Below, piece by piece: positions 4,956 to 62,599 of a DNA stretch of 64,000 bases. Made by a program: the position numbers and the translations under genes. Source of the stretch: a bacterium (lineage in GTDB: Bacteria; UBA10199; JACPAL01; GCA-016699445); contig DATIGE010000056.1 in NCBI GenBank assembly GCA_035454885.1, positions 9,290 to 73,289 on the forward strand, read 5' to 3'. The number at the start of each line of letters is the position of its first letter. Position 1 is the stretch's first letter. The notes below the pieces were generated by a model, which was given only the letters and a program-made list of their open reading frames with translations, did not search any database and was not told the origin of the DNA.

Positions 4956-7900
4956 ATGGTGGGAACCTCGCTCAATTTGATTTCATTGGGTCTGACCTCT
5001 CAAATGGGTCTGGGACTGGGCATCAACCGGCTCGGGGCAAATCTCGGAAATCTCCTGCAATTACAAGGGTCTAACGGAGACGGCTTCAACCTCTCGGAGT
5101 TTGTGGCCGACGCCCTCCCCTGGGCGGCCGGCGCGACCGCCCTGGGGATGGCAGCCGGTGCGGGGATCTATTTCGTCCGCCGCTGGCGGGATCGACAAGC
5201 GGCCCTCCCGCCTCCGGGGATGACGGACGCGCGTCCGGACCAGCTGAAGACCTATTTTCAAACCCCCTCGTCCGACCGCGAAAGGGCCCGGCCCCTCCTC
5301 TTGGGCTACTCGCCTACGGCCTCGGACGAAACCTTGGCCGAGACGGAACGGCGGATCGCCTCGGAGATCGCCGACCTACAGGCCGCTCTCACCGCCCCCC
5401 ACAACGAAAAGAACAAGAAAAGGATCGCCGAGGCCGTCCAGTCCTACGAAGACATTCAGGCCTTCCTTTCCCTGCGGCGGGGCCGGACGGTGCGGGTTCG
5501 CCGGGAATTCCTCGACCATCCGGAAACGGCCCACGCCACCGCCGTTAGACGCCTCTCGGCCCTCGAAGCGCACCGGCTCGTTCTGATCGCCCATTACTTT
5601 CAAAAGGCGCACATTTCACGGAAGAGCGACTTGCCGGACACCGAGCCGGAACCGAAAACGGTGTCCCGATACGCAGGCCTGGACGAGAGACAGAGACGCC
5701 AGCTCCACCTTCTGGCCCTCCGGACCTGGCAGTCGCTCTCTCCCGAGGACAAGGACTTCTTCTGGGAACTCCGACAAAAGGGCGACGACCTGCGCGGGAC
5801 CTCCGTCGCGCCGGATTTTCTGAGACTCTTTGCCCGTCTCGTTCCGAATCCAAAATTCCCCATGAATATGGACGCCTTGGCCGGCGAACTCGCGGGCCAA
5901 GTCACCGCACGCGTGAACGAGCTCAAGAACGGGCCGGAACTACCGCCTCATTTCCGGAACATCCATGGCGGCATCCTCTTGCTCCGGAGCGGCGAGCGCA
6001 TGATGGGTAATATCAAGATCCACCGCCACCTGGGGACCGCCAAGGTCCGCATCACCCGCGAGGTCGGACCGTCGGACAACCGGCAGGTGTCCGTATTGGA
6101 ATACTCTCCGGAACAAGTCCTGACGATCATCGGCGACGAGAAAAAATCCCAAGTACATTGGACGCACCCCGACATCCAGCTGAACGGGGACGACAACAAG
6201 ACCGCCCCCGGCATCGTCGCCGACCTGCGCGAGTACCCCTCCCCCTCCCTGGGCGGCGACCACCGCGTCCTGGTGAACTTTGCGGACGAGCGGCTGACCA
6301 AGAATCTTCAAAGCTTGGAGGTCCTCCGCGAAAAGCTGAAGGGCGGCGAAGTCCCCCCCGCGAGCGCCGTCAGAAGGTTGGCGGGCGCCTTGCTCAAGAA
6401 AAACACGAACCCGGACGCAGAAGCCGTCGCCGCAAAGAGCGGTCCCGGCATTCTGCACGCCCTCATGGACGTCCTGAACGCCGGCGGCCAGGCCGAGCGC
6501 GCCCTCTTGATCCAGATCATCCTGCAATTCCTCGGCATCCCTTCGGCCTTTGAGCGCCGGGACGCTACGGGCGAGGGCGAGACCGCCGCCTTTTGGGTGC
6601 GCGTCGCGGTCCCCGGGGAACCGCAGGTGATCCTTTGCCCGGGGCGGGACGGGGCGGTTCCGGAAGGCGACCCCGACTTTGCCTCCTTTCAAGACCAGAC
6701 GCCGCAGTCGGGATCCCATGGGGCGCCCACAAACGGACTGATCGCCCCCGCTCCCATCGCGCACGCCATCGTTTCGGCTCAGGGCGAAGACAACACGCCC
6801 ATCCCCGCGCCCGCTCCGCCTCCACCCGATGATTTCGACGACCGTCCGACCCAGGTGATCTCCCGGCCAAGACTGTTCGACACCCCCGTTTCGGCGGCAC
6901 CGGACGCCGAGACGGACGAACCGACCGTTCAGGTCCCTTTCGAGACCCTGAAGTCCGAGTCCCTCAGGCACGGCGTGACGGCCGAATTGAAGGAGCGTTA
7001 CGCCCTCTTCGCGACCGACACCGACGCGGCGCGCGAGTTTGCGCGGAGAATCAGCGAAAAGGTGTACGCCGCCTGGGACCAGGCGGGACGGCCGGACCTG
7101 GAAGCGAACGAACAGGGAGAGGCCGTCCTCATTCCGGAAAGATTCATCGAAGCGGTCATGAACGCCTGGAAGGCGAGCCTGCAAAAGAACAAGGGCGCGA
7201 TGGCACGGCGCATCCTGGCTGAGCTGGGCGACCGTGGCGACCGCGCAGCGCGGCGGAAGCCCGCCGCCGCGTCCCTCCCACAGGCGAGCGTTCTTCCCGA
7301 CGACGACGACAACCGGCCGACACTCATCCCGCCTGTCGCGGCTCCCGAACGCGAGAACATCGCCGTCCCCCTCACGCGGCGGTCACGCGCCACCCCTCCG
7401 CCGCTGCCCACGCCCGAGGAATTCGCCCGGCAACAGGAGGAAGCGGCGATTGAGAGAGCCACGGACATTCTCAAGCTCCGGTATCCGGTTTTTCATGAAC
7501 CGCCCTATCAGGGTCTGGCGACGGCCATCGCGCGCAACGCCTACCGGCAGGCGGGAGGCGATCCCGACGCACAACTTGAAGCCATTCTGGGTCTGGTCGC
7601 CCAAACGGCGCCGGCACTGGAGACCAGGGCCTCGCTTCAGCCGGTGCTTGCGGGGATCCGCGCCGCGGACGCGGTCATCTGGGAGCTCACGGACCGTTAC
7701 CCTGCCTTCCGCAATGCAGGCTGGAAAGGCTTTCTTCCCAACGCACTGGCCCACATTTTCCGGGCGTGGCAAATCGCCGGTTCCAAATTCGAAACCGCAC
7801 CGGACGGACGGACCGTCGTCCCGGAGCAGGTTTTTGAAAGCGGGTTCGCCGATTTCACTTCTGGTCTCACGCGGGACTATCCGAACGTGGAGCCCGAAAT

Positions 7901-27734: not shown

Positions 27735-28319
27735 ATGATCCAAGTCGGACAAAAAGCCCCCGAATTCAAGGCGGATGCGGCCCTGGGCAACGACGAATTC
27801 AAGTCGATTTCCTTGGCCGACTACAAGGGCAAATGGCTCGTCCTCTTCTTCTACCCGCTCGACTTCACCTTCGTCTGCCCGACGGAAATCAACGCGTTTT
27901 CCGACGAGATCGACAAGTTCAAGAAGGTGGGCGCCGAGGTCTTGGGCGTCTCGGTCGACAGCAAGTTCTCCCACAACGCCTGGGCGAAGACGCCGCGCAA
28001 GGAAGGCGGCATCCAGGGCCTCAAGTATCCCCTGCTCGCCGACATCAACAAGCAGATCGCGAACGACTACGGCGTCCTGCTCCCCGGCGGCATCGCGCTC
28101 CGCGGCCTCTTCGTGATCGATCCGGACGGGGTCCTTCAGTACCAGACGGTCAACTTCCTCAACTTCGGCCGGTCAACCGAGGAGACGCTCCGGGTGATCC
28201 AGGCCATGCAGATGGCCAAGACCTCCGGAGAGGTCTGCCCCGCCAACTGGAAGCCGGGCGACAAGACGATGAAGCCCGACCTCGTCAAATCCAAGGAATA
28301 TTTTGCGTCGGTGAAATAG
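27735..28319 (+). CDS. typical 2-Cys peroxiredoxin (AhpC/TsaA family)
   Basis: AAAGGAG RBS. Peroxidatic motif FYPLDFTFVCPTE and resolving-Cys motif GEVCPANW. Confidence 0.9.
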   Translation: MIQVGQKAPEFKADAALGNDEFKSISLADYKGKWLVLFFYPLDFTFVCPTEINAFSDEIDKFKKVGAEVLGVSVDSKFSHNAWAKTPRKEGGIQGLKYPLLADINKQIANDYGVLLPGGIALRGLFVIDPDGVLQYQTVNFLNFGRSTEETLRVIQAMQMAKTSGEVCPANWKPGDKTMKPDLVKSKEYFASVK

Positions 28320-28322
28320 CAC

Positions 28323-28973
28323 CTACGGAATCACGTCAAAATCCGCATAGGTCCTGACCTTGAGCGTCGGGTTGTGCAGCTTCTCGTAGCCGATCGTCGT
28401 CACCGGCTTGGTGCCGTAGTCGTGGCCCGGGTAGACCTTGGTCGACGGATCCAGCGCTTTGAGCTTCGAGAGGCTCTGGAAAAGCACCTTGGGATCGCCC
28501 CCGGGCAGGTCCGATCGCCCGCAATTCCCCTGAAAAAGCGTATCCCCGGTGAACAGATGCGGGATCAGGTCGCCCGGCGCCTTGACGAGATAACATGCCG
28601 ATCCCGGCGTGTGACCGGGCGTGCTCAAGGCGGTCACGATCAGGTTTCCGACCTTCAGTTCCTGTCCGTCGGTCAGGGAGATCAGCCTTCCCGTCCCCTT
28701 CTGGAGGGGCCGGTCATCGTCCTTGTGGATGTACACCTCGGCGCCGGTGGCCGCGACCACGGCCTCGACCCCTTCGATGTGATCGAAGTGGTTGTGGGTG
28801 AGGAGGATCTTCGTGATCCGGAACCCCTCCACCTTGGCGATGTTGAGAAGCCGGTCGACCTCCCAGGCCGGGTCCACGTAGGCGCACTCGTGCGTCGAGG
28901 GGTCGCCGATCAGGTAGTTGAAGTTCTGCATCAGGCCGGTCTCGACCTGTTTAATGTACAGCGGGGCTTCCAT
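28323..28973 (-). CDS. MBL-fold metallo-hydrolase (glyoxalase II-like)
   Basis: THNHFDHIEG (HxHxDH), a later TPGHTPGS and a C-terminal GHDYG. Confidence 0.8.
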   Translation of the reverse strand: MEAPLYIKQVETGLMQNFNYLIGDPSTHECAYVDPAWEVDRLLNIAKVEGFRITKILLTHNHFDHIEGVEAVVAATGAEVYIHKDDDRPLQKGTGRLISLTDGQELKVGNLIVTALSTPGHTPGSACYLVKAPGDLIPHLFTGDTLFQGNCGRSDLPGGDPKVLFQSLSKLKALDPSTKVYPGHDYGTKPVTTIGYEKLHNPTLKVRTYADFDVIP

Positions 28974-29457
28974 AAATAATCGGCATCATTTTGAGCCCGA
29001 AGTAGATGGTCACGGCTAGGAGGATCAGATTGTAGGCCGCCATCTTCTTAATCGCGTTCGCCAGCCTCTCCTGCCGCTCAAGCGTACCCTCGATCACCCC
29101 ATTGGCCATTCGTTGCAGCTTGAGCCCCATCCCGAAGCATTGGCCGCCGGCAATGAGGAAGATGAGCGTGGTGAGCCCGAACTTCCACAAGAGGACGTGG
29201 CCGACCGACGAATAGTAGAATTGGCCGAAGCCGATCTTGAGGTCGGTCAGCCGCATGGCCCCGGACATGAAGACGGTGCAGATGCCCAAGAGGAAGATGG
29301 GATGGTAATACTGAATCGCCGCCGCCAGCGTCTTCATGCGCTGGGCCCGGTCCTCGATCGACTTGAGCGAGGGGAACATCGCGCCAACGAGAAAGAGGCT
29401 GCTCCCCAGGCTTATGGCCACGCCCGTCACGTGAAGCCAGCTCAAGACGTGGATCAC
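28951..29457 (-). CDS. hypothetical integral membrane protein (~168 aa, 4-5 predicted helices)
   Basis: The start is set at GTG 29457, which overlaps the upstream stop as GTGA. The track's 212-aa version adds an Arg/His/Pro-rich N-extension that overlaps the neighbouring gene. The body is hydrophobic (VIHVLSWLHVTGVAISLGSSLFLVGAMF...). Confidence 0.55.
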   Translation of the reverse strand: MIHVLSWLHVTGVAISLGSSLFLVGAMFPSLKSIEDRAQRMKTLAAAIQYYHPIFLLGICTVFMSGAMRLTDLKIGFGQFYYSSVGHVLLWKFGLTTLIFLIAGGQCFGMGLKLQRMANGVIEGTLERQERLANAIKKMAAYNLILLAVTIYFGLKMMPIIYGSPAVH

Positions 29458-29747
29458 TGCCCGTCCTCCATGGGACCCTTCGCGTCGAGGCGGCGGATCA
29501 GGTCGTGCATGATCCCGTGCATCTTGAAAATGAACATGAGGCAGAGGGTGAGCGTCAGCGCCACGATCCCGATGCTCGCGAACGACCAATAAAGGTGGGA
29601 GACGAAGAATTTCTGGCCGTGCGCGGCCACGAGGCCCGCGCGCATCGTGAGCGCCAGGGTCAGAAGGGAGAGGAACGAAAGGGTCAGGGCGATGGCGCGC
29701 ATAATGACTTTGCCCGAGGAGTTAGGACACCCCCCGGGCAAAGTCAA
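29454..29747 (-). CDS. hypothetical small membrane protein (2-3 helices)
   Basis: Hydrophobic segments MRAIALTLSFLSLLTLALT and WSFASIGIVALTLTLCLMFIF. The start is uncertain (an internal ATG at about 29702 is possible). Confidence 0.5.
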   Translation of the reverse strand: MTLPGGCPNSSGKVIMRAIALTLSFLSLLTLALTMRAGLVAAHGQKFFVSHLYWSFASIGIVALTLTLCLMFIFKMHGIMHDLIRRLDAKGPMEDGQ

Positions 29748-29759
29748 CTTGGGCTCGTA

Positions 29760-30089
29760 TTATTGTGCCAGGAACGCCTGGAATCCCATCTTGTTCACCT
29801 CAACCGCCACATCCTCCTTCCTCACCTTCGTCGGATCGATCTCGACCTTGCATTTGCCTCCGACGTGGTCGCATTCGGTCGAGAGGATGCCCAACCGGCC
29901 CTTGAGACCCTTTTGGATCTTCTCGGCGTCGAGGCTGTTCTTCATCCCCTGGACGTCGAAAAGGACTTTTTGGGATCTGTCCGGCTGGCTTCCGGAGGCG
30001 TCAAGGGCCGGAGAGGCGAGAACGGCCGAGAAGATGCCGACGAAGAAGACCCCTCCCCTCAGGATCGATTCGAATATCGAGCGTTTCAT
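29760..30089 (-). CDS. hypothetical exported protein, possibly a Cys-less HMA-like fold
   Basis: N-terminal hydrophobic signal/anchor. VLFDVQGMKNSLDAEKIQKGLKG resembles the beta-alpha start of heavy-metal-associated domains but lacks the CxxC pair. Weak call. Confidence 0.45.
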   Translation of the reverse strand: MKRSIFESILRGGVFFVGIFSAVLASPALDASGSQPDRSQKVLFDVQGMKNSLDAEKIQKGLKGRLGILSTECDHVGGKCKVEIDPTKVRKEDVAVEVNKMGFQAFLAQ

Positions 30090-30159
30090 AAAGCACCTCC
30101 CGGGTCATCCCCTAGCCCGCTTCCCGCGGGACAGCTCTCGCTACGGCTCGTAGCGGAAG

Positions 30160-30660
30160 CTAGAAGAAGTAGTAACGAACACCAATGCCTCCGGTCAGAT
30201 CGAACTCGGTCTCCGGGGCCACCTTGACGCCCGGGCCCAGCTCCAAGAATACCTCGACCGGATGATTCACCCACTGGACGGCGAGACCGACGGGCACGCG
30301 GATCGCGGCCTCCGTCCGGTCGTCGTCGCCCGCGTTGATCGCGACCTTGCCGCCGCCCCCCACGTAAAACGGAAGCGTGATGACGTTCGTATCGACGGGA
30401 ATATCCAGAATTTCGAAGGTCGCGTCGCCGATGATCGTCAGGGCGTCATCGATGAACGACCAGGCGAAAATGCCGTCCAAGGCCCAGCGTTGGGTCAAAT
30501 ATCCCTTGAGCGTGAAACCGGTCGGTTCGCCCAGGTGAAGACCCACGCCGAACCTCTTGCCCTTGGGCCCGTAGGCCGACGGCGACTTGGCCTGCAGGGC
30601 CGGCGCCGCGCAGACCGTCAGAAGGACCGCAAGGAAAGAAGAGAGAAGGATCCTTTTCAT
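30160..30660 (-). CDS. small outer-membrane beta-barrel protein
   Basis: Signal peptide MKRILLSSFLAVLLTVCAAPALQA, alternating-hydrophobicity strands and a terminal aromatic signature ...GIGVRYYFF. Confidence 0.65.
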   Translation of the reverse strand: MKRILLSSFLAVLLTVCAAPALQAKSPSAYGPKGKRFGVGLHLGEPTGFTLKGYLTQRWALDGIFAWSFIDDALTIIGDATFEILDIPVDTNVITLPFYVGGGGKVAINAGDDDRTEAAIRVPVGLAVQWVNHPVEVFLELGPGVKVAPETEFDLTGGIGVRYYFF

Positions 30661-31577
30661 AACGCCTCCAGATGAAAGTCAGCAGTCACCGTCTCCTCCC
30701 CGCCGACATCGACGCGGGCCGTCGCGTCCTGATAGCCCTCCTCCGAGGCCGTGACGTCATAGGAACCCGGGGCCACGCAAAGCTCGTAGTTCCCCTCCGT
30801 GTCCGTTTCCTCCGAACTCTCGACCTCAGCGTCCTCGGCGGAATGAGCCGTGACGGTAGCGCCGGCCAGGGCCGAATCGTCCGCTGCCTTGGTCACCCGG
30901 CCGCTGATAAAGGAGTCGGCGTCCGGACCTCCGACCGTCGCGTGAAGGACCGGCTTGAAAAGGATCTTTCCGTTTCCGGTAAAGACCAGGGAATGAGCCA
31001 GGTCGATCCTCACGACGATATGGAGTTCCCCGTTTTCACTGACGACTGCGTTTTCACCCTGAAGTTTGATCTTGAGACCCGAGGTATAGGCGCTCGGGAA
31101 TTTGACGTCCTGCTCCTCTCCGCTCGCGAACCGGATGAAATTCCCTTCCGCCATCAGGACCAGCCTGATCTCGGACACGCTCCGGCCCGCCGGCAACGTG
31201 ATCTCCCCCAATCTTTCGAAAATACAATTCCGGAGATCGAGAAGATTGACGGTCTTTCCTTCCTCGAAGGAGGCCACGGTGACCCATCCCCCTTCGTCCT
31301 CCTCGCCATCATCCGCCTCATCGGCATCGCCTTCTTCATCGGCGTCCTCGCCGTCCAAATGCACCTTCACGCTTTCAATCGTGACGAAAACCCCTTCGAC
31401 CGTTTGAAGATCGACCTCGGGGGAGGACGTGTTCAAGGCGGCCGCCGAGCCCCCCCCTGAACCGCCGGAATTTGAGGAAAGGCTCACAGAAAGCCGGCCT
31501 TCTCCGCCCGCTCCATCGCAGCCCCAAAGGCCAAATGCCGCCATGACCAAGAATAGAGAAACAATGAACGTCTTCAT
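30657..31577 (-). CDS. lipoprotein with an acidic linker and a C-terminal carboxypeptidase-regulatory-like (CarboxypepD_reg) beta-sandwich; possibly DUF4382-like
   Basis: Lipobox FGLWGC after a signal peptide. Asp/Glu-rich stretch DGEDADEEGDADEADDGEEDEGG. The C-terminal GRVT..ATVTA....TDTEGNYEL.VAPGSYDVTAS.EGY pattern is typical of CarboxypepD_reg domains. Confidence 0.6.
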   Translation of the reverse strand: MKTFIVSLFLVMAAFGLWGCDGAGGEGRLSVSLSSNSGGSGGGSAAALNTSSPEVDLQTVEGVFVTIESVKVHLDGEDADEEGDADEADDGEEDEGGWVTVASFEEGKTVNLLDLRNCIFERLGEITLPAGRSVSEIRLVLMAEGNFIRFASGEEQDVKFPSAYTSGLKIKLQGENAVVSENGELHIVVRIDLAHSLVFTGNGKILFKPVLHATVGGPDADSFISGRVTKAADDSALAGATVTAHSAEDAEVESSEETDTEGNYELCVAPGSYDVTASEEGYQDATARVDVGGEETVTADFHLEAL

Positions 31578-31682
31578 AAATCATCCTCCTCGTTCCCTTT
31601 GCACAGCGTTACATGACCCGGATCGTCTGGACCATCGCCATGAAATCCGGCACCTCCTTGAAGTCATCCGTGTTTTTGATTC

Positions 31683-32159
31683 CTAAGGCCCGAAATAGAA
31701 TTCATTCCGCGTCAGGATCCCGTCCTTGTCGCGGTCGAGCTTCCGGAAAAAGTGCATGCGATCCCTCCATTCGCTCCGTGTCAGGACTCCGTTGCGGTCG
31801 GCATCCTGCTCTGCGAACCGGTCGACGCCGATCTGGACGTAGGAATCCAGTTCCCGTTCGCTCAACACGCCGTCCACGTTGGCGTCCAGGCGGGTGAAGT
31901 CCGCCGGCTTGCCCTTCCATTCGAGGCGCGAGACGACACCGTTTCCGTCGAGGTCATCGGCCAGGGACCGGTTCGGGGATTGCGACAGGACGTCGTCGAC
32001 GGACGGCGCGCGGCTTTCCTCCGGATGCGGGGTGGCGACGTAGTCCGGCTTTTTGACCGTACCGCGGTCCTTCTCATCGCCGGAGACCGGACCCGACAGA
32101 AAGGACAGCGCGGCGACGACCAGAAGGACAAGAATCACAACAGATGGGTTGCGCGACAT
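31683..32159 (-). CDS. exported EF-hand calcium-binding protein (four EF-hand loops)
   Basis: N-terminal hydrophobic anchor/signal. Loops DLDGNGVVSRLE, DANVDGVLSERE, DADRNGVLTRSE and DRDKDGILTRNE all fit DxDxDGxIxxxE. Confidence 0.8.
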   Translation of the reverse strand: MSRNPSVVILVLLVVAALSFLSGPVSGDEKDRGTVKKPDYVATPHPEESRAPSVDDVLSQSPNRSLADDLDGNGVVSRLEWKGKPADFTRLDANVDGVLSERELDSYVQIGVDRFAEQDADRNGVLTRSEWRDRMHFFRKLDRDKDGILTRNEFYFGP

Positions 32160-32191: not shown

Positions 32192-32878
32192 TTACGGGTT
32201 GGTGACAACCACGTCCTGGATATGCAACTCGATGCGGCGGTTCAGGGCCCGTCCGGGGTCCGCGAAGGCGTCCTCCTCGGGGGTATCGCCGCCGTCATCA
32301 ACGGGCTCGTTCACCGCGATCGGCTCGGATTCGCCGCGGCCCTCGGCCGACAGGCGGCTCGCCGGAATGCCGTTCTGGATGAACCAATTCATCACCGATT
32401 GTGCCCGTCTTTCGGAGAGCCGTTGGTTGTACTCGTCCGTGCCGCGCTCGTCGGTGTGGCCGACGACCAGCACGCGGACGTTCTGGGCTTGAAGCTCCGG
32501 TAGATTGCTTCTCAAAACCGGCTCGGCGTCGGGACGGATGTCCGCCTTGTCGAAGTCGAAATTGACGCCCTTCAAGACGATAATCCGCGGCTTCGGCGGC
32601 GGAACCGGCTTGCCGACGTGGTACCAGCGCTGCTTCTTGCTGTAGGCCGGGCGATCGTGGTCCCACGCGTCGGGCCGGTTCTTCTCCGTCAGGTAATACC
32701 AACGGGCACACCGGGCGTCTTCGGATGGAGCCTGATCCCGGCAGGCGGCGGGGGGCTCGTCCTGCACCGGCACGAACGTGGCGTCCTCCCCGGCAAGGAC
32801 CCCGGGGATCGTCAAAAGGCCGAGAGGGCCGGCCAACATGAGATGAATCACGGTTTTTTTCAGTATCTTGAGGAACAT
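32192..32878 (-). CDS. OmpA-family peptidoglycan-binding protein
   Basis: The start is set at ATG 32878 (GGAAGGAGGGG RBS), giving signal peptide MFLKILKKTVIHLMLAGPLGLLTIPGVLA. The C-terminal OmpA_C-like domain reads NFDFDKADIRP...VVGHTDERGTDEYNQRLSERRA. The track's start at 32923 overlaps the sigma-54 promoter. Confidence 0.85.
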   Translation of the reverse strand: MFLKILKKTVIHLMLAGPLGLLTIPGVLAGEDATFVPVQDEPPAACRDQAPSEDARCARWYYLTEKNRPDAWDHDRPAYSKKQRWYHVGKPVPPPKPRIIVLKGVNFDFDKADIRPDAEPVLRSNLPELQAQNVRVLVVGHTDERGTDEYNQRLSERRAQSVMNWFIQNGIPASRLSAEGRGESEPIAVNEPVDDGGDTPEEDAFADPGRALNRRIELHIQDVVVTNP

Positions 32879-32906
32879 AAGCCCCTCCTTCCACGTGCAA
32901 AGGGAT

Positions 32907-32922
32907 TGCAACCGGGATGCCA
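32907..32922 (-). promoter_or_regulatory. sigma-54 (RpoN) promoter, TGGCAT-N5-TTGCA
   Basis: The minus strand reads ATGGCATCCCGGTTGCAAT. The GG and GC dinucleotides are separated by exactly 10 nt and both consensus blocks are present (consensus TGGCAC-N5-TTGCW). The -12 element lies about 30 nt upstream of ATG 32878, directly downstream of the sigma-54 activator gene. Confidence 0.65.
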
Positions 32923-33015
32923 TCCCGGCGAGGCACGAAAACTCCGTGTTTTCAAGGAGGACCCGGAAGGGGGCCTGTCACGAATGAGTACGGCTGGACG
33001 GATGTTTCGTTACGT

Positions 33016-36000
33016 TCAGGACTTGAGCCCGTAGGCCTTGACCAGGCGCGAAAGCTGGGGGCGGGCGACCTTCAGTTTCTTGGCGGCGAGACTGATGTTG
33101 CCGCGGGATTCCTCCAAGGCGCGGCGGATGGTCCTTTTCTCGAACGCGGCGCGCATGCCGCTTAAGGACTCGGGGTCTTTCGCTTCCTGTCCCCCCCCGT
33201 CCTCTCCGTCGCCGGCGCCGAACAATTCCTCTTTCTGGCGCAGCTCTTCCGGTCCGATGCTCCGCCCCGCGCACAGAAGACAGGCGTTGAAGATGGCGCT
33301 CTCCAACTCCCGGATGTTGCCCGGCCAGGGATACGCGGCCAGGAGGTCCATGGCCCGCGGGGTCAGTGTCTTCTTGGCGACTTTGTGATCCTTGGCGAAC
33401 TTTTCCAGGAAATGATCGACCAAGAGAGGGAAATCCTCCTTCCGGGCCCGGAGAGGCGGCAGGGTGATTCGCACGCCGTGAACGCGAAAAAAGAGATCTT
33501 CACGGAACTTTTTCTCTCGCGCGAGGTCCTTCAGGTCCCGGTTGGAGGCCGTCAGGATCCGCACGTCCACCTGCACGACCTTCTGCGAACCGAGCGGACG
33601 GATATGCCGGTCCTCCAGGACCCGGAGGAGCTTCGCCTGCATGGCGAGCGGCATGTCGCCGATCTCGTCCAGGAAGAGAGTCCCGCCGTTCGCCGTCTCG
33701 AAGAGCCCTTCCCGGTCCCGTTCCGCGCCGGTGAAGGCCCCTTTCGCATAGCCGAAGAGCTCGGCCTCCAGGAGCGTCTCGGGAATCGCGCTGCAGTTGA
33801 CCGGAATGAACGGCCCCTTGCGGCGCGGCCCGTTGAAGTGGATCGCGCGGGCGATCAACTCCTTCCCCGTCCCGCTTTCGCCGTGGAGAAAGACGGACAC
33901 GTCGCTGTCCGTCACGCGGTCCAGGAGCTTCAGGACCTCCATGATGGGCGGGGAACGCCCGATGATCTCGTCGTAACGGTATTTGAGCTCCAAGGCGGCC
34001 TGTTTGACGGCCAACGATTTCTGCGTCCGGTCGAGTTCGACGACCTTTTCCGACAACGTGGATTCGAGCTGCCGGTTGAGCGCCTCGATCTCCTCTTTGG
34101 AGCGCTGGAGCAGCTCTTGAGATTTCCGGATCTCGAGCGCCCCCTTTTTCAATTCCTCGAAGGCCCAGGCATTGGCGATGGCGATGGCGGTCTGGTCGGC
34201 GAAGGCCTGCAGGAGCTCCATGTCGGCCTCGGTGAAGGCCCCCCGCTGGTGCCTGTTGTCGAGGTACACGGCGCCGATCACGGCATCACGTACGCGGAAC
34301 GGAATGCAGACGATCGATCGGAGCTTCAAGTCGTGGATGGAAAGCGAATGGGAGAACCGCTCGTCGGTCATGGCGTCGATCGTGATCGCCGGCTCCCCGG
34401 TCTTCAGGACGCGGTTGACCAGGGAGCTCGAAAAACTCCCGTGCTCCCCTTCCGCGCCGGGTTCGGCGTCCCGCGTCGCCTTCACGACGTTTTGTCCGCC
34501 CTCGCGGAGGATCAGAAAACCCCGCTCGGCCCCGGTCAACTCGACCATCGCGTCCATGATGACTTCCAGGATCTCGTCGACATCCTGCAGAAGACTGATC
34601 CTCCGGTTGATCGCCAAGACGCGCTTCAGAAACGGGGGAGCGGGTTCCGCCTTCTCCCGGGGGGCCGGGGCCGCAGCCTCCAATGGGGTTGCTTCCTTCG
34701 CGGGCTCTTTCGCGGCCTTCAGGGCATCCTCCATTTCCGCGAGGTTTCGCTCGGCGATGGACTCCTCGTGGGGGCTCTTCAAATCATGGAACAGCCTCTT
34801 CCCTTCGCGGTAGGCCGCGAGGGCCTCCGGGAGACTTCCCTTCTTCTTCAAAAGGTCCCCCGAGAGGAGGCGTCCGTAGGCGATGAGAAACCGGTCCCCT
34901 TTTTCGATCGCGATCTCCTCGGATTGCCGGAGCTTCTCCTCCCCCTTTTCCAGGGACCCCGCGGCGATGAAGAGGTTGGCGAGATTGCTTTTGACCTTGG
35001 CGATGCCCGGCCGGTAACCGATCGCCTCGAGGATCGCCTCGCTCTGGGAATAGTAGGAGAGGGCCTCCTCGTATCTCTCCTTCAAATGATACGCGTATCC
35101 GAGGCTCATCAAATACAACCCCTCGCTCAGAACGTCTCCCCTCCCGCGGCTCAAGGCGACGCTCTCCTCGTAGAAGGCCTTGGCCTCCTCCCATTTGCCG
35201 TCGCGGATCTTCAGATTGCCCAGGTTGTTCAAGAGCGAGGCACGGGAGGCCTTGTCCTGGAATTTTTCGAAGGAAGACAAGGCCTCGCGAAAGGCCTCCT
35301 CCGAGTCGGCGTACTGTCCCAGGTAGTAGAGGGCCTCGCCGAGGGTGTTGAGGAGAAGGCCCCTTTGGGCCCCGTCGATGGACGCTTGGGGCCCTTGGGC
35401 CAGCCGCGTTCCTTCCTCGCGCACCCACTCGAAGCGGCCCTTTTTCAAACCGATCTGAAGCAAAAGGAGCTGGACCCGCTGACCGGTGAGGCCTTGGAGC
35501 AGGTTTTCGGCCTCATCCCAGTTCCCCTGACGGTGGTAGATCTCGGCCAGGAGCCGCCGGGATTCCGCGTCGTCGCGGTCCTTGTAGAAACGAACTGCCC
35601 ATTCGTAAAGCCGCTCCACGTGCTTCTTTTGAAGCTCCTCGGCCTGGGCCGGCGTCAGGACCGGCTTCTCGGGACCCAAGGGAAAATTGAAGTGAAACTG
35701 GAGATTCAGGGCGCGGATGACGTCGTTCGCCTCCTCGAACCGGTCCGCGGGGTCCTTGTTCAGAAGCCGAAGGATCAGAAAGCCGAACTCCTTGGGCATC
35801 GCGGATCCCTCTGGAACCGGGTTCATCGGCATCACAAACAGGTGCTGCTCCACGAGGGTCGGTGCATCCCGGCCCTCGAAAGGAGGATGCCCGCTCACCA
35901 GTTCATAGAGGGTCGCTCCGAGGGAGTAGAGGTCCGAACGGCCGTCCACCGGCGCGCCCATGAAGAGCTCGGGGGCCATGTACGGGAGGGTCCCCGAGAC

Positions 36001-36525: not shown

Positions 36526-36566
36526 GAAAAGAGACCTCTCTCATGACGCGATGCATTCTATCAGAT

Positions 36567-37751
36567 TTAAGGAAGGATGGGCAATAATCGTAAGGGGGGA
36601 CTCCCGAAGACCGATTCCTCGATCGTGCGATTTTCCTGAAGCTCCGCAATCAAGGCGTCGACCACGGCCTTCAAGGACCGGGTCTCGGCGAAGATGCGCC
36701 GCTGGCGGTCCGCGCTCGAACCCGACCGAAGGATGTCCCTCACCCATGAAAGCTCTTCGGCGCAGTTAAGCGTCGCCGCCGCTGGCTTCAAGATCTCCAA
36801 GAGCTTCTCGATCTCCTCCTTGATCGGCCGCCGGTCCTCCCCTTCCCGGAGGATGATATGTCCCTCCAATCCGTAGCGGGCCGCCTGCCATTTGTTTTCC
36901 GGCGCCGTCCAGTAGCGCTGCATCCGGATCTGACCCGTCCGCCCCCCCTTTTCGAGTTGATCGTCGATCCAAACGACCAGGCACTGCACGAGGGCCACGA
37001 GGGCGAGCGTTTCATGCAACGTCGGGATGCCGTCGAAGACGCGGACCTCGATGGTTCCAAAGTCATAGTGAGGTCGGATGTCCCAATAGAGATCCTTGAT
37101 GGAGCCGATCGCGCCCGTGGCCTGAAGCGTCTCGAAAAATTTTTCGAACTCCTTCCATCCCGGCAGAAAATACGGCAGGCCGCCGGTCGGGAACGACTCG
37201 GTCACGGCCGCCCGGCAGGAGGCGAGCCCCGTGTCGGTCCCTCCCCAGAACGGGGAACTCGCCGACAGCGCCAAGAGATGGGGGATGTACGGAATCAGCG
37301 CGTTCAGGATGGCGATCGCCCGCTCGCCGTTCTTCACCCCGACGTGCACGTGAAGCCCGAAGGTCGTCCAGCGGCGCGCCAGCCACTGGAATTTTTCCAG
37401 AAGATGCGTGTGCCTCTGATCCGGAAAGATCCTCCGCTCCCGCCAATCCTGGAACGGATGCGTCCCAGAGACAGCGATCTTCAATCCCTGGGAGTTCGCG
37501 ATCCCCCGGAGCCGGTCCATCTGCCGGGACAGATCCTCCGCCACCTCCCGCACGTTCGCGCAGATCTTCGTATTGATCTCCACCATGGCGACCGTCAATT
37601 CCGACTTCAGGCACAGATCCTCGACGCCCTCGGCGCGCTTGAGGACCGCTTCCGCGGCGGCGGCCAGGTCCTTGCTCGTACGATCGATCAGCTGGACCTC
37701 GACCTCCACGCCCAGCGTCGGCTTCACGCATCCCTGAAATTCGAGAGACAT
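36567..37751 (-). CDS. ybdK: carboxylate-amine ligase, glutamate-cysteine ligase family 2 (YbdK-like)
   Basis: 394 aa. The N-terminal TLGVEVEVQLID, GTHPF and overall GCS2 layout are recognisable. Confidence 0.8.
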   Translation of the reverse strand: MSLEFQGCVKPTLGVEVEVQLIDRTSKDLAAAAEAVLKRAEGVEDLCLKSELTVAMVEINTKICANVREVAEDLSRQMDRLRGIANSQGLKIAVSGTHPFQDWRERRIFPDQRHTHLLEKFQWLARRWTTFGLHVHVGVKNGERAIAILNALIPYIPHLLALSASSPFWGGTDTGLASCRAAVTESFPTGGLPYFLPGWKEFEKFFETLQATGAIGSIKDLYWDIRPHYDFGTIEVRVFDGIPTLHETLALVALVQCLVVWIDDQLEKGGRTGQIRMQRYWTAPENKWQAARYGLEGHIILREGEDRRPIKEEIEKLLEILKPAAATLNCAEELSWVRDILRSGSSADRQRRIFAETRSLKAVVDALIAELQENRTIEESVFGSPPLRLLPILP

Positions 37752-38545: not shown

Positions 38546-40180
38546 TTGGCCGGACGCGTCATGGAAGAAAAGACCAAGTCCCATCGAACCTGGAAAATGG
38601 CGGCGGCGACGGCGGCCATAGCCGTCTGTTATTTGATTGCCGGAAGGCTCGGCCTGTCGGTCGCGGCCCAGCATGCGAACGTCACGTTCGTCTGGCCCCC
38701 GGCCGGCTTGGCCCTGGCGGCCCTCCTCTTGGGGGGCTATCGCCTCGCGCCCGGCGTTTTCCTCGGCGCATTCCTGGTCAATACCCTCACCAGCCTGCAA
38801 TGGCCGGCGGTACTGGCCATCGCCTGCGGCAACACGATCGAGGCGCTCTTGGGGGCCTTTCTGCTCCGGAAAGTCCTCGGGTTTCAAAATGCGATGGAAC
38901 GCCTGCGCGACGTCCTGGGGCTCATCGTCTTGGGGGGGCTCGTGAGCACCACGGCCGCGGCCACGATCGGCGTCACGAGCCTTTGCCTGGAAGGCAGCGC
39001 CTCTTGGGCGTCCTACTCCTCCCTGTGGTTCGAATGGTGGGTCGGGGACATGCTGGGCATCTTGGTCCTGACGCCCTTCCTGATGACCTGGAGCGACGTC
39101 CCCCATTTCCTCACCACCGTGTGGAAGGCGCCCTGGAAGGTCCTTGAGGTGATCGGTCTCTTCGCGCTTCTGATCGCGGCCGCGCAAGGCATTTTCGCAG
39201 GGTGGCTGGACGCTCACCTGGCGTCCCATCTCCGTTCCTATATTTTTCCCCTGCTGATCTGGATGGCCATCCGTTTCGGGCCGAAGGGGGCCACGGCGGC
39301 GACGCTCACCGTTTCCGCCTTCGCGGTCTGGGGAACCCTGCAGGGGTTTGGCCCCTTCGCCGGCCGGACGCATTATGAAGATCTTCTGTTCCTGCAACTC
39401 TTCCTGGCGGTGGCCGTCCTGACCGCTCTCCCCCTCGCCGCGTCGATTTCCGAACGGAAGCGCGGCGAGGAGGTCAAATCCGAGTTCGCCTCGATGGTCT
39501 CCCACGAGCTCCGAACACCCTTAAGCTCCATCAAGGCGGGTATCGAGGTCGTTTTGGACGGAATCGACGGCCCCGTCACCGAAGATCAGCGGAAGACGCT
39601 CGGCATCGCCAGGAACAACGTCGTGCGGCTGACTCGCCTCATCAACAACGTCCTCGACTACTCCAAATTGGAATCCGGCAAGATGGACGTCTTCTTCGAA
39701 AGGACGAATATGTCCCAGCTGATCCGAGAAACTTGTGACCTGATGAAGCTCGCCATGCAAAACAAGGGGATCTCCTTTAGCCTGGATCTCCCTTCCGAGC
39801 CGCTGTTCGCGGTCTGTGATCCCGATAAGATCAAACAGGTGGTCATCAACTTGCTCGACAACGCCGTCAAGTTTACGGACAAGGGCGGAACGATCGTCGC
39901 GGGTCTCCGTTCGTCCGACCGCCACGTTCTTATCGACGTGAAAGACACAGGGATCGGGATCAAGGAGGAAGACCAGGAAAAGATCTTCGAGATGTTTGGT
40001 CAGGCTTCCGGAAAAATCAAAAGACGCGGATCCGGAGTCGGGCTTGCCGTCTGCCGTCTGATCGTCGGCCAACACAAGGGCCGGATCCTGGTCGACAGCC
40101 GGCACGGCCGGGGAAGCCGCCTCACGGTCGCCTTTCCGGACTCCCTTCCCGTGAAGAAGAAGGCCGTCCCTCTGACATAA
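38546..40180 (+). CDS. sensor histidine kinase with a polytopic MASE1-like membrane domain
   Basis: About 300 aa of multi-helix membrane domain, H-box SHELRTPL, N-box LLDNAVKFT, and G-boxes DTGIGI and GSGVGLAV. The start is uncertain (TTG 38546 or ATG 38561). Confidence 0.85.
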   Translation: MAGRVMEEKTKSHRTWKMAAATAAIAVCYLIAGRLGLSVAAQHANVTFVWPPAGLALAALLLGGYRLAPGVFLGAFLVNTLTSLQWPAVLAIACGNTIEALLGAFLLRKVLGFQNAMERLRDVLGLIVLGGLVSTTAAATIGVTSLCLEGSASWASYSSLWFEWWVGDMLGILVLTPFLMTWSDVPHFLTTVWKAPWKVLEVIGLFALLIAAAQGIFAGWLDAHLASHLRSYIFPLLIWMAIRFGPKGATAATLTVSAFAVWGTLQGFGPFAGRTHYEDLLFLQLFLAVAVLTALPLAASISERKRGEEVKSEFASMVSHELRTPLSSIKAGIEVVLDGIDGPVTEDQRKTLGIARNNVVRLTRLINNVLDYSKLESGKMDVFFERTNMSQLIRETCDLMKLAMQNKGISFSLDLPSEPLFAVCDPDKIKQVVINLLDNAVKFTDKGGTIVAGLRSSDRHVLIDVKDTGIGIKEEDQEKIFEMFGQASGKIKRRGSGVGLAVCRLIVGQHKGRILVDSRHGRGSRLTVAFPDSLPVKKKAVPLT

Positions 40181-40553
40181 GGCAGTCGCCGACCGCCATC
40201 AGCAGCATCTCGGAATCGAGGGGCTTCGTCAGGAATCTCACGGCTCCCTCGCCGATGGCGTAATCCACCACTTCCCTGTCGCCATGTCCGCTCAGAACGA
40301 TCACGGGAGGCACCTTGACCCCCGGAGGCAGCCAATTCTTGGCGTTCCGTAAAAAGGCCGTCCCGCTGGCGTCCGGCAGACCTAAATCCAAGATGACCAG
40401 ATTGGGCCTTTCTTTTCGAAGCGCCTTCAAGGCGTCCTCAACCGTCAATGCCGAAATGCAGGAATAGCCGCCGGCATTAAGCTTCTTCGCGAGAAGGTCC
40501 TGCATGTCCTGATCATCCTCGACGATGAGGATCTGTTGGTTGGGTGTCGTCAT
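40122..40553 (-). CDS. single-domain response regulator (CheY-like receiver)
   Basis: The start is set at ATG 40553 (AAGGAGG RBS). ILIVEDDQD, LVILDLGLPD and LTKP receiver signatures. The 3' end overlaps the convergent kinase gene by 59 nt. Confidence 0.8.
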   Translation of the reverse strand: MTTPNQQILIVEDDQDMQDLLAKKLNAGGYSCISALTVEDALKALRKERPNLVILDLGLPDASGTAFLRNAKNWLPPGVKVPPVIVLSGHGDREVVDYAIGEGAVRFLTKPLDSEMLLMAVGDCLMSEGRPSSSREGSPERRP

Positions 40554-40554
40554 C

Positions 40555-40920
40555 TCATCCTCCTTTCCCGAGCAAGTTCGTGATGGTTTCACGAAACTCC
40601 TCGGGGTCATAGGGTTTGCGGATAAATCCTTGCGCTCCCAGTTGATTCAAACAGTACTCCTCCTGAGATCCATGGGCGGAGAAAAAAACGATCGGAGTCG
40701 ACTTCAGTGATTCTTCCTCGCGAATCCCCCGGTAAACATCGATACCGGACAGGCCGGACAAACGGATATCCAGGAGGATCAAGGCCGGCCTTTCTCTCCG
40801 AACCGCCTCGACCGCCCCTTCTCCTTCATAGAGGCAGACAACGTCATGCCCCCACGAGCGGATACGGCGCGCCGCCAAGTGCGCGACGTCCGGCTCGTCA
40901 TCGATGATCATGAGTTTCAT
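40555..40920 (-). CDS. single-domain response regulator (CheY-like receiver)
   Basis: MKLMIIDDEPD, LILLDIRLSG and IRKP receiver signatures. Confidence 0.85.
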   Translation of the reverse strand: MKLMIIDDEPDVAHLAARRIRSWGHDVVCLYEGEGAVEAVRRERPALILLDIRLSGLSGIDVYRGIREEESLKSTPIVFFSAHGSQEEYCLNQLGAQGFIRKPYDPEEFRETITNLLGKGG

Positions 40921-42118: not shown

Positions 42119-42192
42119 TCGGGGCGACTGGATTTGAACCAGCAACCCCCTGCTCCCAAAGCAGGTGCTCTACCAGGTTGAGCTACGCCCCG
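42119..42192 (-). tRNA. tRNA-Pro (anticodon UGG), CCA not encoded
   Basis: The reverse complement CGGGGCGTAGCTCAACCTGGTAGAGCACCTGCTTTGGGAGCAGGGGGTTGCTGGTTCAAATCCAGTCGCCCCGA folds as a cloverleaf. It has acceptor CGGGGCG/CGCCCCG, D stem GCTC/GAGC, anticodon stem CCTGC/GCAGG with loop TTTGGGA, and a TTCAAAT T-loop. Confidence 0.9.
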
Positions 42193-51150: not shown

Positions 51151-51221
51151 CTCGGGGGCGTGGAATCGAACCACGATTAAGGGCTTCAAAGGCCCCTGTC
51201 CTACCGTTAGACGACCCCCGA
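51151..51221 (-). tRNA. tRNA-Gln (anticodon UUG), CCA not encoded
   Basis: The reverse complement TCGGGGGTCGTCTAACGGTAGGACAGGGGCCTTTGAAGCCCTTAATCGTGGTTCGATTCCACGCCCCCGAG has a U1-A72 acceptor pair and discriminator G as in bacterial tRNA-Gln. Anticodon loop CTTTGAA, T-arm CGTGG-TTCGATT-CCACG. Confidence 0.85.
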
Positions 51222-61203: not shown

Positions 61204-62106
61204 CTAAACTTTACGAACATAGAGTGAGCCCGAAGGAGATGAAGGACCTCGCTTGAATGGAGTCGCCAGCATGCCATCGATCGTTTGCCATTCTTCATCC
61301 ATGAACTTCTTCAGGCCAGACTTGATCGTTTCCGGCTCACAATTTCGTTCGTAAGTTCCGAAGATTCTATCCCAAAAGGTAAAAATGATCCCAAAATTCC
61401 GATTCATTTGCCGAACATCCTGTGAATGATGCAAATGATGCATTCTCGGTGAGACAACAATGCATCTGATAATCTTGTCCCACTTTTCTCCTACATCAAT
61501 ATCCGCGTGATGGAATATCGTGATAACTGGTTGCAACAGGAGGTAGACCTCGCTTGCCACGACAGGAAGACCCACCATGAAGCTAAGCGGAAAAACAAAA
61601 CACATCGAAAATAGTACTTCCATGGGGTGAAATCGAACGGCAGTCGAACCATCGAGATGAAAATCGGTGTGATGCATACGATGAAATTGCCATGCGACGG
61701 GTATAAGATGTGTTAGGCGATGATACCAATAGATCGTCAAGTCTAATAGCAGGACTCCCAAAAACGTTCTCAACATTGCGGGTATAGAAAACCACATAGA
61801 ATCGACGGCATCGGAGCGAGGCAAAATTGGCACCATGGGAACGATGAGCAAGATTGATACTGTCGCGGTCGCGATGACATTCATTGCCTTAAATGACAAA
61901 TTACGAAACCGATGCTTCCAAGAACCTCGCGACCACCGGCTAGGCTCGATAGTTGAGATCAGAAACGTCAAAAATAAGCTGATGAATAGGCTCTGAACTT
62001 CTTGGTTGGAAAAAGTCAGATAACTTAGGAAATCGCCAATAAGGTTTCTCACGGCGTCAGGCATTACGTGGAGCCGCCTGCTCGGCGGCCCCACGTATAT
62101 TGACAA
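61204..62106 (-). CDS. fatty acid hydroxylase / sterol desaturase superfamily membrane protein
   Basis: His boxes WYHRLTH, FHRMHH and MHHLHH in a polytopic membrane protein. It lies in the low-GC patch. Confidence 0.75.
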   Translation of the reverse strand: MSIYVGPPSRRLHVMPDAVRNLIGDFLSYLTFSNQEVQSLFISLFLTFLISTIEPSRWSRGSWKHRFRNLSFKAMNVIATATVSILLIVPMVPILPRSDAVDSMWFSIPAMLRTFLGVLLLDLTIYWYHRLTHLIPVAWQFHRMHHTDFHLDGSTAVRFHPMEVLFSMCFVFPLSFMVGLPVVASEVYLLLQPVITIFHHADIDVGEKWDKIIRCIVVSPRMHHLHHSQDVRQMNRNFGIIFTFWDRIFGTYERNCEPETIKSGLKKFMDEEWQTIDGMLATPFKRGPSSPSGSLYVRKV

Positions 62107-62449: not shown

Positions 62450-62599
62450 ATCCGTATCCTCCCATTGGTTGTTTGAGCCTTGTGAGTTGCAAAGGCGAGG
62501 CCAAAAAGCAGCATACAGAGAAGGATATGCAGGTTCCTGAATTTATATGGTTTTCTTGAAAAAACTTGCTTCAACATGCCCCGTCAGATGAGTGTTTAA

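Follow-up and report, generated by a model that had tools for sequence, protein, structure and literature searches.

A predicted sigma-54 promoter and its putative cognate kinase-fused activator ahead of envelope genes in an uncultured soil bacterium

Introduction

Sigma-54 promoters are defined by a GG and a GC dinucleotide that lie one helical turn apart, within the consensus TGGCAC-N5-TTGCW. In the 64,000-nucleotide stretch of bacterial DNA analysed here (hereafter, the window), a sequence of this form is found between the gene for a sigma-54 activator fused to a protein kinase and a block of genes for envelope proteins. The locus raises two questions, namely, whether this sequence is a promoter and, if so, whether the protein encoded next door is its activator. 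A previous reading of the sequence alone, made without database searches, had proposed a cis-linked activator-promoter pair before the envelope genes, and this proposal is supported by conservation, by placement and by the hallmarks of the activator. We consider it likely that 32922..32907 is a functional sigma-54 (RpoN) promoter whose cognate activator is the protein encoded by the adjacent upstream gene. The unit is of an ordinary and familiar type; what makes it of interest is the kinase-TPR-GAF sensory region of the activator, so far uncharacterised, together with the conserved targets, proteins without an assigned function.

Table 1. Features of the activator-promoter locus in the window, and the corresponding motifs in four orthologous loci
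Feature	Coordinates	Strand	Basis and remarks
Sigma-54-type promoter core TGGCATCCCGGTTGCA	32907..32922	minus	sequence read; TGGCAT-CCCGG-TTGCA; GG at -25/-24, GC at -13/-12
Predicted transcription start	32896	minus	inferred; 12 nt counted from the C of GC
Ribosome-binding site (RBS) of the OmpA-like gene, GGAAGGAGG	32884..32892	minus	sequence read; 5 nt before ATG 32878
Candidate enhancer (UAS) dyad CGTACTCATTCGTGACA	32976..32992	minus	starts 70 nt upstream of TGG; centre near -88
Perfect 17-nt palindrome CCGGGATG-G-CATCCCGG	32912..32928	.	overlaps the -24 element and the spacer
Inverted repeat GAAAAC-N5-GTTTTC	32937..32953	.	between the enhancer candidate and the promoter
Activator gene, 1169 aa	33016..36525	minus	Pfam Pkinase, TPR, GAF, Sigma54_activat, AAA_lid_14, HTH_8
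OmpA-family exported protein, first gene	32192..32878	minus	Pfam OmpA PF00691, 6e-21
Exported protein with four EF-hand loops	31683..32159	minus	Pfam EF-hand families, signal peptide
DUF4382 + CarboxypepD_reg lipoprotein, acidic tract	30657..31577	minus	Pfam
8-stranded outer-membrane beta-barrel, 166 aa	30160..30660	minus	AlphaFold2 model, pLDDT 90.4, 8-9 strands
Exported HMA-like protein without CxxC	29760..30089	minus	Pfam HMA below cut-off; weak NCBIfam matches
Small membrane protein, 97 aa	29454..29747	minus	ORF, hydrophobic; no significant family (Pfam, NCBIfam)
Membrane protein, weakly CopD-like, start uncertain	28951..29460	minus	Pfam CopD 0.002, below cut-off
MBL-fold hydrolase, glyoxalase II-like	28323..28973	minus	Pfam Lactamase_B; NCBIfam GSH_gloB below cut-off
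Sigma-54 motif, L001: TGGTACGCCGATTGCT			101 nt after activator stop
Sigma-54 motif, L099: TGGTATGGGGCTTGCT			102 nt after activator stop
Sigma-54 motif, L100: TGGTATGTTCCTTGCT			105 nt after activator stop
Sigma-54 motif, L103: TGGCACCGTATTTGCT			108 nt after activator stop

A sigma-54-type promoter core in the gap behind the activator gene

The minus strand around the motif reads ...GGGATGGCATCCCGGTTGCAATCC..., and the core consists of TGGCAT (32922..32917), the spacer CCCGG and TTGCA (32911..32907), matching the degenerate consensus TGGCAY-N5-TTGCW at all specified positions. The 10 nt between GG (32921-32920) and GC (32909-32908) are the canonical -24/-12 spacing. Both the near-consensus motif on the minus strand and its spacing, as described in the earlier reading, are confirmed, and so are the coordinates of the 137-nt gap that holds it, which extends from the activator stop codon (TGA, 33018..33016) to the ATG of the OmpA-like gene at 32878. 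Within this gap, the TGG of the motif is located 44 nt before the ATG, in non-coding sequence and on the same strand as the OmpA-like gene. The predicted start at about 32896 would give an 18-nt leader containing the ribosome-binding site. An A-G-rich, RBS-like sequence (e.g. AAGGAGG or AAGGGGG) is present at an equal distance from the ATG in the window and in each of the four orthologous loci considered below.

The exact pattern TGGCAY-N5-TTGCW matches only once in the window, both strands included, compared with an expectation of 0.06 per window from shuffles that preserved base composition only (any match in 6 of 100 shuffles). With one mismatch allowed, there are two matches against 1.83 expected, a number no greater than chance. 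The second of these sigma-54-like sites (62503..62488) has no activator gene near it; each of the two lies between genes and faces the gene that follows. A search of the six-frame translation of the window for the RpoN box found none. The intact GAFTGA of the activator and the second motif lend indirect support to rpoN being encoded in the genome. Among sequencing runs, the sequence was detected only in soil-metagenome DNA runs, and no RNA runs containing it were found.

A generic sigma-54 activator with a kinase-TPR-GAF region

The activator comprises, in this order, Pkinase (PF00069, residues 9-264, E = 7e-46), TPR, GAF (647-784), Sigma54_activat (PF00158, 854-1020, E = 6e-68), AAA_lid_14 and HTH_8 (PF02954, 1126-1165, E = 4.7e-07), the last of which is highly conserved among the orthologues. 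It contains the only GAFTGA of the window, together with the Walker A motif GESGTGKE and the Walker B motif FLDEIG, and all three motifs are conserved in five of the six aligned family members. By these features, the protein possesses every sequence hallmark of a sigma-54 activator (bacterial enhancer-binding protein, bEBP). None of the NCBIfam equivalog cut-offs is reached, the best partial matches being to PrdR, NifA, AtoC and NorR, all below their cut-offs; we therefore describe the protein as a generic, unnamed sigma-54 activator.

The kinase domain is of the HGD (non-RD) Hanks type of Ser/Thr kinases. Six homologues spanning 48-100% identity all share its Gly-rich loop (G16/G18/G21), the VAIK lysine K38, the catalytic loop H128-G-D130-LKP-x-N135 and the motifs D150-F-G and A184-P-E without change, and because every catalytic residue is kept in these proteins, the kinase is probably active.

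In a protein search, full-length relatives were found at 72, 69, 68, 60 and 48% identity, along with a TPR-less form of 941 aa, and the clade of the short form (1130-1170 aa) comprises 7 clusters at identities of at least 48%. The search of genome contigs yielded one orthologue, in the locus denoted L001, and the search of metagenome contigs yielded none, its best match being 38% identical over one domain. Our literature search found no paper that describes kinase-fused sigma-54 activators, in either the short or a longer form; a paper on the myxobacterial kinome reportedly lists kinase-sigma-54-activator fusions.

Conservation of the predicted promoter in orthologous loci

The comparison set consists of four syntenic orthologous loci (L001, L099, L100 and L103) with activators 68-72% identical, which are those where a co-directional gene comes after the activator. 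Their GC content is 46-58%, and that of the loci overall ranges from 46 to 62%. All four carry TGG[CT]A[CT]-N5-TTGC[AT] on the same strand, after the activator stop (Table 1). From the stop to the TGG, the distance is 93 nt in the window and 93-108 nt over the five loci, and from the TGG to the ATG it is 44 nt in the window and 43, 40 and 45 nt in three of the orthologous loci, with L099 at 145 nt. The orthologous motifs keep GG-N10-GC and TTGC exactly. In a MAFFT alignment, the spacers have little in common apart from the promoter, the RBS and one box upstream, and the rest is unalignable.

The same relaxed pattern has 15 matches on both strands of the 1.05 Mb of loci; five of these are the window promoter and its four orthologous copies, and about 10 others are scattered over 2.1 Mb of strand. 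Chance cannot explain a match on the right strand and within the right 100-150 nt in all five loci. Given the same arrangement in four distant relatives, the predicted promoter beside the activator is almost certainly real.

More divergent members of the family show other arrangements. In a homologue at 48% identity (P0007), GAFTGA is lost and both the Walker A and the Walker B motifs are degenerate. The gene next to that of P0007 begins after 10 nt, and no acceptable sigma-54 motif was found within 23 kb, the sole one-mismatch match being intragenic and breaking the GC. This locus would amount to a natural control, in which loss of GAFTGA goes along with absence of the motif. The orthologue at 60% identity (P0005) keeps GAFTGA, and a convergent gene comes after its activator gene; here, a motif (TGGCATAGCCTTTGCT) is located ahead of a four-gene operon, the last gene of which encodes the activator. 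The predicted promoters ahead of the activator's own operon are those in L101 and L103, and the upstream motif of L103 (TGGCCTCTGGATTGCT), which is similar to that of P0005, is located after a clear terminator. In L100, an additional motif (TGGCACTGCCTTTGCA), accompanied by a dyad, precedes the gene for a homologue of the window's HMA-like protein (42% identical).

A candidate enhancer and other elements of the spacer

For bEBPs, the enhancers are frequently dyads, in many cases arranged in tandem, at distances of over 50 bp upstream (PMC12754779). In a spacer-only search of the five loci, the best shared word is CGTCA-rich and dyad-like at width 17. Across eight promoter regions, the best set of 17-mers scores 83, compared with 74.2 on average and 78 at most in 100 composition-only shuffles, and none of the 100 shuffles scores as high as the shared word at any width from 9 to 19. 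This search predicts a shared 17-bp dyad, approximately CGTCAC-N5-GTGACG, 55-90 nt upstream of the TGG in the majority of the family's promoters. When scored with a symmetric matrix built from the sites of the other loci, 32976..32992 ranks 1 of 63,984 window positions, and when one locus is left out at a time, the best match in the whole locus falls within -125..-30 of the TGG for six of the eight promoters, the window included, in a cross-validation that is not fully independent given that the matrix sites come from the joint search and the sequences are related. The clearest copies of the dyad are those of L100 (CGTCAGAAATCCTGACG, a perfect 6-5-6 palindrome) and L001 (CGTCAGGATTTGTTACG); the window dyad is a moderate match (score of 11.5-12.1 vs 18-20 for L001 and L100). 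Its placement matches that of known bEBP enhancer sites (PMC12754779).

In the sequence-only reading, inverted repeats for activator binding had been expected upstream of the promoter, within the last part of the activator gene. The best candidate for such a site, the dyad, is intergenic instead. The conservation at the 3' end of the gene is coding conservation of the HTH, so that an intragenic enhancer is not needed to account for it, and we discarded that placement. Also discarded was our first enhancer candidate, ACGTAACGAAACATCCG (33015..32999), which came from the five-locus search and scores -25.1 with the matrix from the other loci.

Two more symmetric elements are present in the gap. 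The palindrome that overlaps the -24 element is unique in the window, and the orthologous sequences from L001, L099, L100 and L103 lack it; this could point to a further or distinct role in the organism studied here. At the place of the GAAAAC-N5-GTTTTC repeat, the same four loci contain an A/T-rich tract, and this stretch is possibly, albeit speculatively, a bending or IHF-type region.

Genes downstream of the predicted promoter

The earlier descriptions of the genes in this block (OmpA-like, EF-hand, lipoprotein, barrel, HMA-like, membrane and MBL proteins) hold when examined with Pfam, NCBIfam and a structure model. The OmpA domain of the first protein (residues 107-191) scores 75 bits against a cut-off of 27.2, and its NCBIfam matches are all below their cut-offs. 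Four DxDxDG loops are readable in the sequence of the EF-hand protein, which presumably binds Ca2+. Lanmodulin EF-hand loops have a proline at the second position; the four loops of this protein lack it, and with an NCBIfam score of 28.9 bits against a cut-off of 135, an assignment to lanmodulin was rejected. An OmpA-like gene is located behind the promoter only in the window (L100 has two OmpA homologues, upstream of GCS2), and no homologue of the EF-hand gene was found in the orthologous loci.

In all four orthologous loci, the gene directly behind the promoter is the one for the DUF4382 lipoprotein; a literature search on the function of DUF4382 found nothing useful. The start of the barrel gene overlaps the stop of the lipoprotein gene, and barrel homologues with 58-64% identity come after the lipoprotein gene in L100 and L001, where the contig reaches. 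The barrel protein itself has no match in Pfam. The Foldseek matches of its model include Ail (2.4e-04), the OmpA transmembrane domain, the OprF N-domain (TM 0.57/0.68) and NspA; the signal peptide, the strands, the modelled structure and the aromatic C-terminus (...RYYFF) point to a fold of the OmpA-TM/OmpX/Ail-like type. The barrel family is broader than the family of loci considered here, with 75 homologues found; the three contexts that we fetched are those of stand-alone genes, with neither an activator nor a sigma-54 motif. Because the OmpA-like and EF-hand genes are located behind the promoter only in the window, the conserved core of the predicted regulon is the DUF4382 lipoprotein and the small barrel.

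How far a transcript from this promoter would extend is a separate matter. The last minus-strand gene of the block is that of the MBL hydrolase, which is followed by a convergent peroxiredoxin gene (ORF 27735-28319). Rfam detects only two tRNAs in the window, far away from these genes. A scan of the intergenic gaps of the block for intrinsic terminators found none that is convincing, in agreement with the earlier remark that no obvious terminator was seen. The 70-nt gap before the HMA-like gene (30090-30159) contains two hairpins without a U-tract, and neither this gap nor the 105-nt gap before the lipoprotein gene (31578-31682) contains a sigma-54 motif. We hypothesise an eight-gene operon; given the two hairpins and the 105-nt gap, the transcription unit may be shorter than eight genes.

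Proposed mechanism

What the sequences show is the motif with its placement and conservation, the domain hallmarks of the activator and a conserved dyad. We infer that sigma-54 and the activator bind here, as well as the signal, the position of the start and the reach of the transcript, and envisage the following order of events. Sigma-54 holoenzyme would bind the GG and GC elements to form a closed complex, and the Fis-type HTH of the activator would bind the dyad at 32976..32992, which precedes the -24 element by about 60-90 bp and lies in the spacer just past the activator's own stop codon. The N-terminal sensory region, with its Ser/Thr kinase, TPR and GAF modules, would release inhibition, and the AAA+ ring would then contact sigma-54 via the GAFTGA loop, with ATP hydrolysis opening the promoter. 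Transcription from about 32896 would reach the OmpA-like and EF-hand genes at least, and probably also the genes for the DUF4382 lipoprotein and the 8-stranded barrel.

Alternative explanations

The longest ORF of the OmpA-like gene, the one given in the ORF listing, is 32192..32923, and its ATG overlaps the TGG of the motif, so that the motif could be coding sequence of this frame and hence no promoter. We consider this reading hardly credible: GGAAGGAGG is located 5 nt before 32878 and nothing similar is present ahead of 32923, a typical signal peptide, beginning at the second Met, comes after the 15 extra residues (MASRLQSLCTWKEGL), and the orthologous loci have the same promoter-RBS-ATG layout ahead of a different gene. 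As the strong RBS and the normal signal peptide belong to ATG 32878, this codon is the better start. A different objection is that the match is fortuitous or structural, with the palindrome CCGGGATG-G-CATCCCGG acting either as a hairpin to terminate or stabilise the mRNA of the activator or as an operator for another protein, and the OmpA-like gene being expressed from a sigma-70 promoter or by read-through. Indeed, the perfect 8+8 palindrome overlaps the -24 element, and RNA structure prediction folds it into a hairpin, in a GC-rich window where such stems are common. Yet the hairpin lacks a U-run and is not called by the terminator scan, the spacer does not fold more stably than its shuffles (z = -0.27), and a scan of the 137-nt gap found no sigma-70-like site. 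Moreover, the orthologous motifs preserve the promoter elements without the palindrome, and an exact consensus match is, as noted, rarely expected in a window of this size, which makes this explanation very improbable.

It is also conceivable that the sigma-54 promoter is real but is driven by another enhancer-binding protein encoded elsewhere, its adjacency to the activator gene being incidental. Distant activators can serve sigma-54 promoters, the second sigma-54-like motif at 62503..62488 is without a nearby activator gene, and the window dyad is only a moderate match, all of which is compatible with such an arrangement. However, the distance to the activator stop is held within 93-108 nt in five lineages while the flanking genes have been rearranged, and the dyad co-occurs with promoters beside members of this activator family, including the own-operon promoters in L101 and L103. 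Furthermore, no such motif is present around the homologue that lacks GAFTGA. Regulation by an unlinked activator thus seems unlikely, and we favour the reading of 32922..32907 as a sigma-54 promoter served by the adjacent activator.

Discussion

Assignment of the promoter to the adjacent gene product provides a confident and testable regulator-promoter-enhancer combination for an uncultured bacterium from soil. A kinase-TPR-GAF-AAA+-HTH architecture, so far unstudied, is thereby linked to a DUF4382 lipoprotein and a small barrel, both without an assigned function. The cassette is compact, with about 4 kb for the activator, spacer and promoter, and could be moved to a model host, where the signals perceived by the kinase, TPR and GAF modules could be identified, as could any gating of the sigma-54 activator by phosphorylation. 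Envelope genes are a common theme among sigma-54 targets, and the predicted targets here fit the idea that sigma-54 chiefly controls the cell exterior (PMC3162934).

A more far-reaching and, as a whole, rather doubtful possibility is that these proteins represent a small, uncharacterised clade of one-protein signalling systems, with a catalytically intact Ser/Thr kinase joined by TPR and GAF modules to a sigma-54 activator, and that they travel as a self-contained cassette made up of the activator gene, the dyad, the promoter, the DUF4382 gene and the barrel gene. Should the kinase control the AAA+ ring by autophosphorylation, or provide a second output by phosphorylation in addition to transcription, this would be an experimentally undescribed mode of bEBP control.

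Comparison with known systems

Several characterised systems resemble parts of this locus. The closest in domain order are the GAF-type bEBPs (NifA, FhlA, NorR and PexR of Myxococcus xanthus), in which, as here, GAF, AAA+ with GAFTGA and HTH follow one another, and the promoters of which, like the predicted promoter and candidate enhancer here, combine a sigma-54 -24/-12 element with dyad enhancers located over 50 bp upstream. The GAF domain of PexR is autoinhibitory until the signal arrives (PMC12754779). The PexR site, CACCG-n6-CGGTG, differs from the dyad predicted here, approximately CGTCAC-N5-GTGACG. Unlike in these GAF-type proteins, about 630 residues of Hanks-type kinase and TPR precede the GAF domain, and the predicted targets are envelope proteins without an assigned function.

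The PspF-pspA system, which responds to the state of the envelope, is similar in that the activator gene adjoins its sigma-54 promoter and the products act in the envelope. PspF has no sensory domain, is controlled by binding of PspA and is transcribed divergently from its target. In contrast, the activator described here is co-directional with its putative targets, contains three sensory modules and has the promoter after its stop codon.

Coupling of Hanks-type kinase signalling to a sigma-54 activator, as apparently found here, is shared with the Ser/Thr-kinase-linked activators of Myxococcota. In these bacteria, FHA-domain sigma-54 activators are phosphorylated by separate kinases. Kinase and activator parts within a single protein are also found in the many 1600-1800-aa kinase-AAA_16-TPR-GAF-activator fusions that our protein search identified in Myxococcota, Eisenbacteria and Planctomycetota MAGs. 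The activator of the window has the same outer domains as these long fusions, but is shorter and dispenses with the AAA_16/STAND module.

Related candidate promoters and possible regulation of the activator gene

Upstream of activator-containing operons, sigma-54 motifs accompanied by dyads, the candidate enhancers, are located at 7243 in L101 (the locus of the 60% identical orthologue) and at 6703 in L103 (a syntenic orthologous locus). Because the motif and the dyad precede the operon that encodes the activator itself, this arrangement suggests autoregulation of the activator in these lineages. In both operons, the genes for an exported protein of ~300 aa and a lipoprotein of ~90 aa are followed by the activator gene; this exported protein-lipoprotein pair is present in the orthologous loci L001 and L100 as well, and is missing from the window. 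At 11259 in L100, the motif TGGCACTGCCTTTGCA, with TCGTCAAGAGATCGTGACA upstream, lies 5' of a homologue of the HMA-like gene (42% identical to that in the window); in this organism, the gene has a predicted promoter of its own, of the same regulon type. In the orthologous locus L099, the leader (5317-5446) between the promoter and the lipoprotein gene is 145 nt long, compared to 40-45 nt in the other loci, and contains a strong hairpin, GCCGATGGCGTGTTAACACGCCATCGGC.

In the window, a sigma-70-like site is located just upstream of the activator start codon and is a possible constitutive promoter for this gene. The window also encodes two CheY-like response regulators. In L001, a 50% identical regulator of this type (2538-2951) is encoded directly between the GCS2 and activator genes and, given this position, may share a signalling neighbourhood with the activator.

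The palindrome that overlaps the main promoter is present in a single copy in the window and is missing from every orthologous promoter. The second sigma-54-like motif lies 39 nt 5' of the ATG (62449) of an unknown gene encoding 112 aa, and the next gene encodes a fatty-acid hydroxylase (61204-62106); neither an activator gene nor a dyad was found near this motif.

Features in the window and in L104
Feature	Coordinates	Strand	Details
11 large co-directional ORFs	1118-24268	+	325-1356 aa
Palindrome CCGGGATG-G-CATCCCGG	32912-32928		perfect, 17 nt; overlaps -24 element of main promoter
Sigma-70-like site TTGCCC-18-TAGAAT	36555-36584	-	extended TG; 3' end of GCS2 gene
Two CheY-like response regulators	40122-40920	-	single-domain; ~3.6 kb upstream of activator
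tRNA gene	42119-42192	-	Rfam
tRNA gene	51151-51221	-	Rfam
Second sigma-54-like motif TGGCCTCGCCTTTGCA	62488-62503	-	intergenic
P0007 gene	L104 10001-13414		activator homologue, 48% identical

A homologue without GAFTGA

In P0007, GAFTGA is lost and the Walker A and B motifs are degenerate; the kinase motifs are retained. No sigma-54 motif is detectable within 23 kb around its gene. P0007 resembles a former activator whose present role may be restricted to that of a kinase or a DNA binder.

The rest of the window

Together, the 11 large ORFs make up 23 kb of unknown multi-gene families and comprise at least three paralogous sets that have N- or C-terminal sequences in common; the 10 ORFs that were scanned yielded no Pfam match at 1e-5. 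The Rfam scan of the window produced no match beyond the two tRNA genes. ClpB, a DegP-type protease and a BamD-like lipoprotein, all encoded at 54.5-60.5 kb, indicate that the source organism is a diderm.
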